Made by a program: the position numbers and the translations under genes. Below the pieces are notes generated by a model. The model saw nothing but the letters and a program-made list of their open reading frames with translations, was not told where the DNA came from and did not search any database. Of a DNA stretch of 64,000 bases, positions 8,376 to 61,761 are shown piece after piece. Origin of the DNA: Candidatus Kaiserbacteria bacterium (GTDB lineage: Bacteria; Patescibacteriota; Minisyncoccia; Phycocordibacterales; UBA2100); contig JAHFMV010000004.1 in the NCBI GenBank assembly GCA_023267655.1, positions 10,044 to 74,043 of the forward strand, in the 5' to 3' direction. How positions within the stretch are numbered: the stretch's first letter is position 1; each line of letters begins with the position of its first letter.

Positions 8376-9794
8376 ATGAAAGGAACCATCACACAGATCA
8401 TCGGTCCGGTCGTCGACGTCCGTTTTGACGAGAATTTGCCGGCGATCAAGAATGCCTTAGAGGTGAAGCATAACGGGGGAAGACTCGTGCTTGAAGTCGC
8501 GCAACACCTCGGACTCAACCGCGCTCGCTGCATCGCCATGCAAGATACCGCTGGTCTCGCGCGTGATACGGAGGTCGTCGACACTGGCGCGCCGATTTCG
8601 GTTCCTGTCGGCGACGCATCGCTCGGTCGCATGTTCAATGTGGTGGGGGATCCTATCGACGGCATCGCTGCGCCGAAAAATCCAAAGCGTAATCCTATCC
8701 ACGCAAACGCGCCTGAATTTACGCAGCAATCCACGAAAGCCGAAGTCTTCGAAACCGGTATCAAGGCTGTTGATCTTCTCTGTCCCTTTATCAAGGGCGG
8801 TAAAGTTGGTCTTTTCGGCGGCGCCGGCGTCGGCAAGACGGTTCTCATTCAGGAACTCATCCATAACGTGGCATCCGAGCACGGCGGCTATTCCGTCTTT
8901 GCTGGCGTGGGAGAGCGAGTCCGCGAAGGCAACGACCTCTATCACGAAATGAAAGATTCAGGCGTTTTGGAAAAAACCGCGCTCGTGTTCGGTCAGATGA
9001 ACGAAGTGCCGGGTGCTCGCGCACGCGTCGCGCTAGCGGGGTTAACTATGGCGGAGGCCTTTCGAGATAACGTAGGCCTTTCTTCAGGCGGCCCCAGTGA
9101 GACAGGCAAGCCGTCTCACGGGGCAGGCAAAGACGTGCTTTTCTTCATGGACAACGTGTTCCGTTTCGTCCAAGCAGGTTCTGAAGTCTCATCGCTCCTC
9201 GGCCGCATCCCATCAGCCGTCGGGTACCAGCCGACGCTCGCGGAAGAAATGGGTCAGCTTCAAGAACGCATCACCTCGACGACCAACGGCTCAATCACGT
9301 CTGTCCAGGCGATTTACGTTCCGGCCGACGACATCACCGACCCGGCGCCTGCTACGTCTTTTGCGCACCTCGATTCAACCGTCGTTCTTTCGCGTCAGCT
9401 CGCATCGCTCGGTATCTATCCGTCGATTGATCCTATTTCCAGCGGTTCGAGCGCACTCCAGCCGGACATCGTCGGTGAAGAACACTACCGCGTTGCGAAC
9501 GAAACAAAGCGCGTCCTCCAGCGCTATGCCGATCTCCAGGACATCATTGCTATTCTCGGCATCGAAGAGCTATCAGAAGAAGACCGCAAGCTCGTGTATC
9601 GTGCGCGCAAAATTCAGAAATATCTCTCACAGCCATTTAATGTCGCCTCCGTCTTTACCGGCAAGCCGGGTAAGTACGTCTCGCTCGCGGATACGATCCG
9701 CTCGTTCGGCGAAATTCTTGATGGCAAGCACGATGATATCGACGAAGGCGCTTTTTATATGAAAGGAGGTATCGACGAGGTAGTAACCTCGTAA
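8376..9794 (+). CDS. atpD: ATP synthase F1 subunit beta (with 12-aa palindrome-derived insertion)
   Basis: [27 protein letters not shown]. Confidence 0.98.
9092..9127 (+). repeat. REP-like 36-bp hairpin inserted in-frame in atpD
   Basis: CCCCAGTGAGACAGGCAAGCCGTCTCACGGGGCAGG. Confidence 0.85.
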
Positions 9795-9894
9795 TTTTCA
9801 ATTACCAATTTTCAATCAAATTCCAATGAATTAATTTTCAAACATTGGAGCATTGAAAATTCACTGAAAATTGAGAATTGTAAATTGAAAATTA
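9792..9894. repeat. About 100-bp AATTTTC/GAAAATT palindromic element, copy B (inverted)
   Basis: Reverse complement matches 4233-4343 (first 45 nt identical). Confidence 0.9.
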
Positions 9895-10136
9895 TGAACA
9901 CTCTCCATCTCATCATTTCCTCCGTTTCGGAAAATTTGTACGACGGTCCGGCTATTTTCGCGACCATTCCGGGATCCGCGGGTGAGATGACCATCTTGCC
10001 AAACCACGAACCGCTCATCACCACGCTGAAAGAGGGAACCATCACCGTACGCATTCCGAATGCGGAAGATAAAACGTTTACGATTAAAAGTGGTGTGCTT
10101 GAGACGTCAGGCTCTCGCACAGTTGTACTCGTATAG
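9894..10136 (+). CDS. atpC: ATP synthase F1 subunit epsilon (N-terminal beta domain only)
   Basis: PGSAGEMTILPNHEPLITTL..G; 80 aa with no C-terminal helices. Confidence 0.9.
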   Translation: MNTLHLIISSVSENLYDGPAIFATIPGSAGEMTILPNHEPLITTLKEGTITVRIPNAEDKTFTIKSGVLETSGSRTVVLV

Positions 10137-10186
10137 TTTTCAACATTGAGCTCTTCACACCCCTGAAAGCGAGCTACAATACGGTT

Positions 10187-60020: not shown

Positions 60021-60170
60021 ATGCTTCCTCCACTTCTCGATCTAATTCGAAAGAGTGAGAAAAGCGTAACCGTTCTCATCGACTGGGAACGCATCAAGAA
60101 AAAACTTGAGAAAAAGTGTAAGAAAACTGGGAAACAGGTTCCTAGTGAGTACGAGGACACCAGTGACTAG
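60021..60170 (+). CDS. Possible 49-aa basic small protein
   Basis: MLPPLLDLIRKSEK..EDTSD; below ORF-track cutoff; TATAAT upstream. Confidence 0.3.
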   Translation: MLPPLLDLIRKSEKSVTVLIDWERIKKKLEKKCKKTGKQVPSEYEDTSD

Positions 60171-60222
60171 GAGCGATACATGGGTGGCATACGGCCGCCC
60201 TTTTCTTTGGTATACTGGTTCC

Positions 60223-60483
60223 ATGTCGGAAGTAGGCGGCGAGAAGCGAAAACCTCGGTATGATTTAGGAGAGCCCGGTCCTGATTCTTTTACTGCACAT
60301 TTGAACGAGCTACGAAATGCCCACACTGCAAAGCGTGTTCGAGAAATCGAAGATGAGAGGGGTATTCCAAATATTCAACAAATCCATGAAGAATTCGAAT
60401 TGGCCATAAATGATCATCTCAAAAAGAAAGGAAATAATTTGGGAAATTTCCTGCTCAAGAAGAAAAAATCAGTCAAGCACTAA
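60223..60483 (+). CDS. Hypothetical protein
   Basis: TATACT 6 nt before ATG; 86 aa. Confidence 0.55.
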   Translation: MSEVGGEKRKPRYDLGEPGPDSFTAHLNELRNAHTAKRVREIEDERGIPNIQQIHEEFELAINDHLKKKGNNLGNFLLKKKKSVKH

Positions 60484-61761
60484 GACGGAAACATTTCGTT
60501 TGCCGCGCTTCAGAAGCGCAATATTGTTGAAGAAATCCGATTCTTTGAGAATACGATTCACGTCGGTTACTGCCGCGCCCGAAAGATTCACAGCCCCGTC
60601 TTCGACGAACTGCCGCGCTTCACGGTTCGACGTCGCAAGTTTTGATTCCACGAGCGCATCTACGATTGTCATACCGAGTTTGATCGTCGCAGACGGTGCT
60701 TCTTTTTGCAGCATTTTCGCCGTGGACGCGGGAACTTCCGATAAGTTTTTACCTGCAAATAGCACTTCGGAAATACTTTGAGCGCTTTTCGCGGCATCTT
60801 CGCCGTGTACAAGTGTGGTCACTGTCGTTGCAAGTGTGATTTGAGCTCTCCGCTCGGAAGGATTCGCTGCATGCTCCTTGACTAGTGCGTCAATATCATT
60901 TTTCGGCAGGAGCGTCATTTTAAGAAGCATTTCTTCGACAGCATCATCGCTTATATTCAGCCAAAATTGATAAAACTGGTACGGAGAGGTCTTTTTGCTA
61001 TCGAGCCAAACCGTTGTTCCGCCTTCGCTCTTGCCAAATTTCTTGCCGGTCGCTTTGTCGACAAGAAGCGGCCATGAAAAGGCGTATACTTGGTCGCCCG
61101 TCGTCTTGCGGATCAGCTCGACTCCCGAGAGAATATTTCCCCATTGGTCGGAACCGCCGACTTGGAGATCGCAGCCGTACCGTTTGTGCAATTCAAGGTA
61201 ATCGTACGCCTGGAGGAGCATATACGAAAATTCGGTGTAGGAAATTGATTGGTCGGGCGTTTCGAGACGCGGTCGCACGCTGTCGCGCTTGACCATTTCA
61301 TTCACGGTGAAATGCTTGCCGACGTCTCGCAAGAATTCCATCATGCCGATTTTTCGCAGCCAGTCAGCGTTATTTACCATTTCAAAGCCTGCCCCGTTAG
61401 AGGACGAAGTCTCTCTAATGGGGTCAACGCCACCAAGCAGCTGCTTGAACTGTGTGCGTAATGCTTTAGAATTGGCATCAACGGTTTCATCGGAAAGGAG
61501 GTTGCGCTCGGCGCTCTTCCCTCCGGGATCTCCCACCATTCCGGTTCCGCCACCGACAATAACGATGAGCTTATGACCGTCTTCAACGAAACGTCGCAAG
61601 ACAAGGATGCCTTGCAATTGGCCGACATGCATCGAATCAGCGGTTGGGTCGACACCGAGGTAGAGCGTACGCTTCTTGCCATCGGTGATCTCTTCGAGCG
61701 TCTCGCTTGAGTGCTGGTACACATACCCTCGCTCGTGAAGAATTTCGGAAAGCTTCGCCAT
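60469..61761 (-). CDS. tyrS: Tyrosine--tRNA ligase (with 12-aa palindrome-derived insertion)
   Basis: Y.G.DPTADS.HVG, QAYDY, GGSDQWGNI, KFGKS, S4 domain. Confidence 0.97.
   Translation of the reverse strand: MAKLSEILHERGYVYQHSSETLEEITDGKKRTLYLGVDPTADSMHVGQLQGILVLRRFVEDGHKLIVIVGGGTGMVGDPGGKSAERNLLSDETVDANSKALRTQFKQLLGGVDPIRETSSSNGAGFEMVNNADWLRKIGMMEFLRDVGKHFTVNEMVKRDSVRPRLETPDQSISYTEFSYMLLQAYDYLELHKRYGCDLQVGGSDQWGNILSGVELIRKTTGDQVYAFSWPLLVDKATGKKFGKSEGGTTVWLDSKKTSPYQFYQFWLNISDDAVEEMLLKMTLLPKNDIDALVKEHAANPSERRAQITLATTVTTLVHGEDAAKSAQSISEVLFAGKNLSEVPASTAKMLQKEAPSATIKLGMTIVDALVESKLATSNREARQFVEDGAVNLSGAAVTDVNRILKESDFFNNIALLKRGKRNVSVLVLD
61388..61423 (-). repeat. REP-like 36-bp hairpin inserted in-frame in tyrS
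   Basis: Minus strand CCCCATTAGAGAGACTTCGTCCTCTAACGGGGCAGG. Confidence 0.85.

Follow-up and report, generated by a model that had tools for sequence, protein, structure and literature searches.

Hairpin insertions in a Candidatus Kaiserbacteria genome share their arms with GIY-YIG cassettes and recur in native gene starts followed by recoded restarts

Dispersed bacterial palindromes are known in several forms. First, the repetitive extragenic palindromic elements (REPs) associated with RAYT (REP-associated tyrosine transposase, TnpA-REP) combine a tetranucleotide with a bulged hairpin, follow a single-strand logic and leave no target duplication (Corneloup et al., 2021; PMC8266576). Second, the GTAG- and CGTC-tagged REPs described by Di Nocera et al. 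include intragenic copies and the Rickettsia palindromic elements (RPEs) RPE-4 and RPE-6, some of them in frame in uvrA and other repair genes; the CGTC units lack a cognate transposase, and at their 3' end a short tail is left unpaired (Di Nocera et al., 2013; PMC3733652). Third, SsnA of Neisseria meningitidis is described as a 94-residue GIY-YIG protein that cuts single-stranded DNA just upstream of its cognate hairpin and needs a C directly after the palindrome, and its authors raise an IS-like origin of the nuclease and hairpin (Chenal et al., 2025; PMC11893778). Here we analyze a hairpin family from a window of 64,000 nucleotides (the whole stretch studied; Candidatus Kaiserbacteria bacterium, GCA_023267655.1, contig JAHFMV010000004.1, positions 10,044 to 74,043), which is part of a 1.09-Mb genome (G000) in 27 contigs. 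The element is a mobile palindrome, dispersed through the genome and tolerated in coding sequence, that enters preferred sites without duplicating the target, is under selection for length, shares its ends with GIY-YIG cassettes and lies, in several genes, within a native start followed by a recoded restart. Of the published systems that we have compared, the one closest to it, as far as it is described, is Ssn with its NTS hairpins (CGTC-type REPs). We think it probable that the hairpins are gene-less derivatives of the GIY-YIG cassettes, mobilized in trans by the cassette nuclease, and that the recoded restarts arose by transformation.

The window contains five copies (Table 1), whose coordinates and strands had been listed in an earlier note made from the letters alone and are all verified. 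Four of them fold into a bulged hairpin that leaves a 4-base tail unpaired (z -2.9 to -4.3); the stem-loop claimed for all five is weak in the copy at 32803 (z -1.0). A strict pattern detects 27 copies (33-42 bp) across the genome, whereas 8 order-4 Markov simulations gave 0-1 each; the pattern has matches in 79 of 116 genus genomes; it also matches 35 of 301 genomes drawn across the phylum, where single matches may be due to chance. The stems are highly varied inside one genome, and near-identical units reappear in distant genomes. The note had read CCTG on the opposite strand of four copies and CCCG on that of the fifth, and this tag is confirmed: it is CCTG or CCCG on the antisense strand, that is, a CAGG or CGGG tail 3' of the hairpin, and a GTAG-type 5' tetranucleotide was not seen. 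Like the intragenic GTAG/CGTC REPs and the RPEs, as far as these are described, the copies are short tagged palindromes in frame within known, conserved genes, the orthologues of which are empty. They differ in the CAGG 3' tag, in their bulged and highly varied stems within one genome and in having a gene-bearing full-length form; the words CCTG and GIY are absent from the main text of PMC3733652. An Rfam search of the window matched one tRNA and none of the hairpins. In viral contigs a loose hairpin pattern gave chance matches only and the strict arm pattern none, and a search with the cassette nuclease described below returned no viral relative; thus, no phage carrier was found among these. 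Copies are at times nested within one another, as at G000:C2:40658-40730 and, at the foot of the 3' arm, at the G105 loci L194 and L202. There are also symmetric derivatives with the same arms and no tail (G000:C27:5937-5993 and C6:27932-27960), the first of which is located within a serS-like open reading frame (ORF).

Evidence for insertion comes foremost from empty sites. In tyrS the site is exactly empty in 27 of 29 other genomes, upholding the note's claim that deletion of the copy leaves clean sequence; of the remaining genomes, G109 carries, 6 nt upstream, a hairpin of the same family, and in G013 that very step is taken by another hairpin. The gene at 32304, the product of which has no match in Pfam or NCBIfam, supports the same claim, as 27 of 29 other genomes are at the empty length, one of them reading exactly WITSGESLDW, and two have other small inserts. 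The third case, atpD, does not behave in this way. The corresponding turn has four residues (mostly EGGK) in 28 of 29 other genomes and the window AtpD has 17 extra, of which 12 come from the element and five are left unexplained by it; removal of the copy, thus, fails to restore the ancestral sequence. In G022 (L011) a different hairpin occupies the same GG/Y step of atpD (the slash marks the insertion point) next to a similar extra stretch, such that both hairpin-bearing alleles have a 5-6-residue stretch starting N-[VI]-G just upstream although their hairpins differ. Two observations underlie the placement of the AtpD insert in a surface loop: its alignment with solved structures and the length variation that occurs naturally at that position. 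The reading frames are open through the tyrS, atpD and 32304 copies, which are therefore predicted to add loops of 11-12 residues, as the note had proposed. Among the contigs from four DNA runs, none of the pieces listed bridges the atpD copy and the only one with an empty atpD site belongs to another organism; one contig spans the 11358 copy with no difference and may come from the source sample itself. A separate insert of about 35 residues relative to orthologues, rich in short palindromes, is seen in a methyltransferase gene of G085 (L666).

Table 1. Hairpin copies and associated genes in the window (slash, insertion point)
Feature	Position	Strand	Remarks
atpD (F1 beta), intact	8376..9794	+	17-residue insert in the turn that leads into strand DVLxFxDN of solved beta subunits
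NVGLSS replacing one residue (E in most relatives)	9069..9086	+	5 extra residues adjoining the element, outside it
36-bp hairpin + CAGG	9092..9127	+	in frame in atpD, 12 residues added, site GG/C
Native, now frameshifted 5' end of RNHCP gene	11314..11409	+	31-codon leader through the hairpin; TGA overlaps new ATG
35-bp hairpin + CAGG	11358..11392	+	inside broken RNHCP start, site A/T; same site occupied in G087
Working RNHCP-domain gene (PF12647)	11406..11705	+	replacement N-terminus
Native 5' end of ychF, 13 codons, now frameshifted	17888..17965	+	25-codon leader, stop 9 nt before new ATG
35-bp hairpin + CAGG	17923..17957	+	inside broken ychF start, site A/C
Working ychF	17972..19072	+	first 13 codons vs broken copy: 9 synonymous + 1 non-synonymous codon differences
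Conserved gene, family unassigned	32304..33026	+	present in 95/116 genus genomes
33-bp copy, CGGG tail	32803..32835	+	in frame in 32304 gene, 11 residues added, site T/C, weak fold
tyrS, intact	60469..61761	-	same loop independently occupied in G109 and G013
36-bp hairpin + CAGG	61388..61423	-	in frame in tyrS, 12 residues added, site A/C

The insertions show a clear target preference. The preceding base is A in 74 of 107 copies and the following base C or T in 93; the A/Y step itself accounts for 66/107 against a background of 12%, and for 56/71 in an out-of-sample set from six further genomes (71 copies, with 2 near contig ends left out). Other than the A at -1 the 5' flanks are unconstrained, and no CGTC-type 5' tag was seen. 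None of the 107 copies is bounded by a direct repeat of 4 or 5 bases, which upholds the proposed absence of target duplication. The predicted enrichment of lengths divisible by three (3n) inside genes is also borne out, both in this genome (14/16 in-gene copies versus 4/11 outside genes, p=0.011) and in the six further genomes (20/26 versus 18/45, p=0.003); two in-gene cases of 37 bp stay in frame because their first C counts as a base of the host codon. In-gene copies mostly face the sense strand (13/16 here and 24/26 in the six further genomes), so a shared orientation relative to the host gene holds for most copies rather than for all, as had been stated. The link to replication direction that went with it was not found, with 15 of 27 copies on the locally G-rich strand; on short contigs GC skew is but a weak guide to that direction. 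Among 80 copies taken from other genomes, 15 could be aligned with an orthologue here, and five of these are clean insertions of 33-39 bp; the remaining placeable ones have neighboring indels or align poorly.

What, then, might move such a palindrome? The earlier note took the copies to be REP-like and handled by an HUH tyrosine transposase (RAYT or the TnpA of IS200/IS605) with CCTG as the guide. This is in keeping with a tetranucleotide and bulged hairpin on the other strand, the lack of target duplication and six Y1/HUH genes in the genome, and the element does resemble the REP/RAYT systems in its tetranucleotide, bulged hairpin, single-strand logic and absent target duplication. However, each of the six Y1 loci has a palindrome of its own and none is flanked by the studied repeat (0/6), contrary to what the note led one to look for, and the Y1 domain is absent from 57 neighbor proteins scanned of the 112 listed. 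Further, the guide rule, as given in PMC8266576, would by our application predict CA cuts for CCTG, whereas the junctions are A/Y, or R/T on the other strand. The Y1 genes carry other palindromes, whereas GIY-YIG genes are bracketed by the hairpin's own arms; hence, the enzyme class named in the note is probably wrong, and we give an HUH mechanism a slim chance. Both an HUH/RAYT partner within this genome and assignment to the REP/RAYT class, for which a GTAG tag is also wanting, were accordingly rejected. The note was right in placing the mobilizing enzyme outside the window, the candidate being a GIY-YIG gene on contig C25. Four of the Y1 genes are RAYT-like (G000:C1:27150, C7:23850, C5:10865 and C3:150445; L003-L006), and each is flanked by a separate palindrome family; two or more of these families are dispersed through the genome. 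The window has an IS982-family transposase gene (27744-28580; NCBIfam NF033520, barely above the cut-off) with no tie to the hairpin.

The C25 gene is bracketed by the commonest arms of the hairpin and is missing at that junction in 5/5 close relatives. It encodes a single-domain protein of 94 residues (PF01541, E 3e-15) with the conserved Tyr, Tyr, Arg, His and Glu. Inverted arms scoring >=12 enclose a unit of about 280 bp in 91 of 98 distinct related loci, with compensating changes, and a start codon is present on both sides in 64 of 89 loci of this arm type. The closest relatives of this cassette come from records titled Patescibacteria, Kaiserbacteria and Paceibacterota; related loci further include records titled Omnitrophota, Planctomycetes and Syntrophales. 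A match to the cassette arms at >=13/17 positions is seen in 16 of the 27 copies here, compared with 3.6% of shuffles and 1/46 of the chance viral matches. As the hairpin arms match the terminal arms of these ~280-bp cassettes, the hairpins are likely to be their gene-less derivatives. The start-codon cassettes, with the same arms around a unit of ~279 bp, are distinguished from the studied copies by the CAGG tail, the intragenic A/Y landing and the recoded replacement starts of the latter. A further 80 GIY-YIG loci of the genus (80 of ~120 listed) have other arm types, some of which match other hairpin subfamilies with the mismatch or bulge included, and the arm types cluster on a quick tree of the GIY-YIG proteins (which includes one Ssn row and has wrong arm labels for L395, L413, L417 and L427). 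Additionally, a metagenome scan for the last codons of the gene followed by a CAGG or CGGG tail gave 32 hits, 17 of which (13 distinct) have the 5' arm 278-283 bp upstream, a feature that the search pattern left free, while 13 are without it and one each has an internal deletion of 206 bp and of 71 bp. The hits occupy several different sites, some of them clean at G/T. Together with the mini-elements they indicate that full, shortened and gene-less forms have both ends in common. Copy number also follows the nuclease, with a mean of 7.2 in genomes with the closest cassette (n=19) versus 2.9 in the others (n=96), and 4.7 versus 1.8 for genomes with and without any strong short GIY-YIG hit. Full-length cassettes of one CAGG-tailed clade (L441, L445, L446, L448, L449, L457, L458 and L459) have landed at several different points of a single small gene family, within its 3' end or close to it.

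This arrangement recalls the classical MITE, or miniature inverted-repeat transposable element, in that terminal inverted repeats are common to an autonomous element. Unlike the MITEs of DDE transposases it leaves no target duplication, and the cassettes encode the GIY-YIG nuclease only; a classical DDE MITE was therefore rejected. The parallels with Ssn/NTS, as far as PMC11893778 describes it, are closer: in both a single-domain GIY-YIG protein of 94 residues is linked to a dispersed, oriented hairpin (20-50 nt in Ssn) with a C right after the palindrome. Yet here a single hairpin encloses the gene in its loop, with one arm on each side, whereas the Ssn layout of NTS-ssnA-NTS places it between two hairpins; the studied hairpins have no CGTC tag; and NTS are within genes in 2% of cases versus 16/27 copies here, where the empty sites show insertion. 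The cassette protein is 28-36% identical to six NTS-flanked proteins over 47-69 residues and has no matching C-terminal segment, its nearest solved structure is UPF0213 BH0048, and the single Ssn row in the quick tree sits on a long branch. On these comparisons the cassette nuclease leans toward a subfamily separate from the Ssn clade (cd10448).

Several observations weigh against deriving the hairpins from this nuclease. The resident cassette is of the start-codon type (ATGA on both sides), its arms start with ACCG rather than CCCC and it has no CAGG tail; the tail is found in 0/89 start-codon-type loci from genomes. As many as 11 of the 27 copies have no good match to any arm in the library, and among copies from other genus genomes only 16/57 match (null 1.2%), the library having lacked most bulged types. 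The co-occurrence test is overstated, since kin are not independent, and in G087, with its 17 copies, the resident cassette protein has no match (one query, in a genome that is 90% complete). There is also a competing candidate in tRNA-linked GIY-YIG genes accompanied by other CAGG-tailed hairpins. Thus, the arms might descend from GIY-YIG cassettes while the CAGG tail is the working signal, with another enzyme, such as the tRNA-linked GIY-YIG or host repair, moving whatever carries the tail. The unrelated hairpins with the same tail at the same sites in atpD of G022 and tyrS of G013, the hairpins in 5' tRNA duplicates directly before other GIY-YIG genes, the nesting of copies at the foot of the 3' arm and the case of G087 would all be accommodated by this proposal. 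However, no tRNA-linked gene was found among the four GIY-YIG hits in this genome, and the full-length cassettes that carry the tail as well as both arms at several sites imply that the tail travels with an arm-matched nuclease too. We consider it rather unlikely. In the tRNA-linked loci themselves (L396, L413, L414, L417, L427, L430, L425, L434 and L438) the GIY-YIG gene directly precedes a tRNA gene and, ahead of it, a duplicated tRNA 5' end holds a hairpin, often CAGG-tailed, in a stub-hairpin-restart logic at tRNA genes.

The non-3n copies of the window led to a different and more surprising feature, one overlooked in the earlier note. Both 35-bp copies are not plain intergenic insertions: they lie within frameshifted duplicates of the 5' ends of the genes that follow. 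The copy at 11358 splits an ORF from 11314 that duplicates the N-terminus of the RNHCP gene at 11406, and the copy at 17923 splits a duplicate of the first 13 codons of ychF. In ychF the closest relative, G085, matches the broken copy at 33/39 nt as opposed to 26/39 nt for the working start, and in the RNHCP gene its match to the broken copy is SKFQRRIEDFTCE. Since the broken copy is the one that G085 resembles in each gene, this copy is the native start, and the working one is the newcomer. The same layout is found in this genome at rplX and at a short ribosomal-protein gene behind infC, giving a total of 4/11 copies outside coding sequences (CDS), and in relatives at rplX, rpmB, tsf, leuS, dnaG and typA. 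A score test detected duplicated flanks at 22/106 copies, as against 16/400 random sites, and at 17/48 among non-3n copies; in the six further genomes the figure is 17/71. Clear Met-start pairs make up about half of these (dnaG, tsf, rplX, rpmB, leuS, smpB, typA, rnhA and rplT, named by sequence reading and only in part backed by family search). In 14 verified pairs out of 28 hand-picked cases 49 codons are identical, 55 differ synonymously and 21 non-synonymously, a synonymous-rich pattern that two orthologues would yield and the decay of a dead copy would not. On the other side, roughly half of the score-based matches are reverse-frame, tRNA or repeat matches and not Met-start pairs, and the choice of cases by amino-acid similarity inflates the synonymous share. 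Moreover, duplicated starts occur behind 3n copies too (6/38 versus 11/33 for non-3n, p=0.10), so rescue from a frameshift is not the whole story; the restart seems to be called for by a hairpin near the start and not by the frameshift alone. At the rplN-rplX junction of G017 (L238) there follow, in order, a GIY-YIG cassette of another arm type, a CAGG hairpin, a broken rplX start with a 41-bp copy and the new start. Another duplicated start, without the studied hairpin, is seen at G000:C13:7133-7946 (L247 and L249), where broken and intact UPF0213-like GIY-YIG copies flank a HicB/HicA-like pair (names read from sequence).

Could the duplicated starts be independent scars of ordinary recombination, in which hairpins merely piled up as neutral DNA? 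About 92% of the genome is ORF-covered, and the scarcity of dead DNA could make such scars attract the insertions that survive. A scan of 1280 ORFs that required close similarity found one duplicated start, namely the hairpin-bearing ychF case, and none free of the hairpin (shuffled controls gave 1-2). Of 26 parsed RNHCP loci two have a hairpin, and a duplicate was seen by eye in those same two. These results, along with the four of 11 non-CDS copies that lie in duplicated starts, make the scar explanation unlikely. A genus-wide search for short duplicated rplX starts was negative in 116 genomes; its gap of 25-55 nt is too short for the hairpin cases and covers shorter duplicates only. The old start, together with the hairpin, persists as a short leader, and the end of this leader often falls at the new ATG or shortly before it: among 15 leaders a TGA overlaps the new ATG in 5 and the stop is 6-20 nt before it in 7. 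This raises the question as to whether the hairpin is itself functional, translation initiating at the old ATG and then hopping or re-initiating, with the leader kept as a regulatory or bypass element. Besides the coupling, one variant contig has the RNHCP leader altered at three third-codon positions, and the occupied RNHCP site is common to G087 despite a TyrS identity of 63%. Against this, the site, hairpin subfamily and linker vary across genomes at rplX, tsf, rpmB and leuS, 24/26 of the RNHCP loci lack the hairpin, and coupling to the new start could be selected after the accident with no regulatory role required. A regulatory leader, hence, appears very improbable.

Taking these strands together, we posit that the cassette nuclease mobilizes the mini-hairpins in trans on single-stranded DNA; on the model of SsnA, mobilization by this enzyme, with the sense strand being the exposed one, is likely. 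A nick or cut beside the hairpin followed by host repair is our working guess for the insertion step. Selection would then sort the insertions, such that copies of 3n length persist in tolerant protein loops, and copies in the first ~3-15 codons where a synonymously recoded second 5' end sits just behind the hairpin. This second start most likely derives from an orthologue of foreign origin that entered by natural transformation, was anchored through homology inside the gene and was joined illegitimately near the hairpin; the layout is most likely a scar of transformation. A ComEC-type gene is present in the genome. Integration of SXT/R391 supplies prfC with a new 5' end. The present layout resembles that case and homology-facilitated illegitimate recombination in having a foreign 5' end behind the native one, with a stub left; it is unlike both in that the stub holds a mobile hairpin, the arrangement recurs at many genes and there is no integrase. 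Homology-facilitated illegitimate recombination, as described in PMC3240628, is our model for the joining of the foreign 5' end. A bolder proposal, which we find doubtful and put forward only tentatively, is that hairpin and nuclease together form a gene-start swapping system, in which the mini-element enters a conserved gene within its first codons and there marks the break point for a foreign, synonymously recoded 5' end during DNA uptake. If so, a transposase-free element of ~280 bp with a hydrolytic nuclease would both spread 35-base copies and drive the repeated replacement of starts in ribosomal and other essential genes.

In-frame REP-like insertions have already been described (PMC3733652), and the in-frame loops are therefore not new. 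What is new is that both seemingly intergenic 35-bp copies are inside native, frameshifted gene starts and are followed by a synonymously recoded replacement start. In open-licence PMC and bioRxiv we found no description of the hairpin family, the start-codon GIY-YIG cassettes or the restart layout; the supplements of PMC11893778 and PMC3733652 may list related motifs. Ever since 2013, tagged palindromes that have no transposase have posed an unsolved problem; mobility of the nuclease and hairpin was only suggested in the Ssn paper. With full-length, internally deleted and gene-less forms that have identical ends, along with empty sites, the question is reduced to an oligonucleotide assay with one protein of 94 residues. 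The restarts and loops also account for spurious leaders and odd loops in annotations. Finally, the recoded restarts are a record of repeated 5'-end replacement in essential genes, and most likely a sign of natural transformation among uncultured bacteria.

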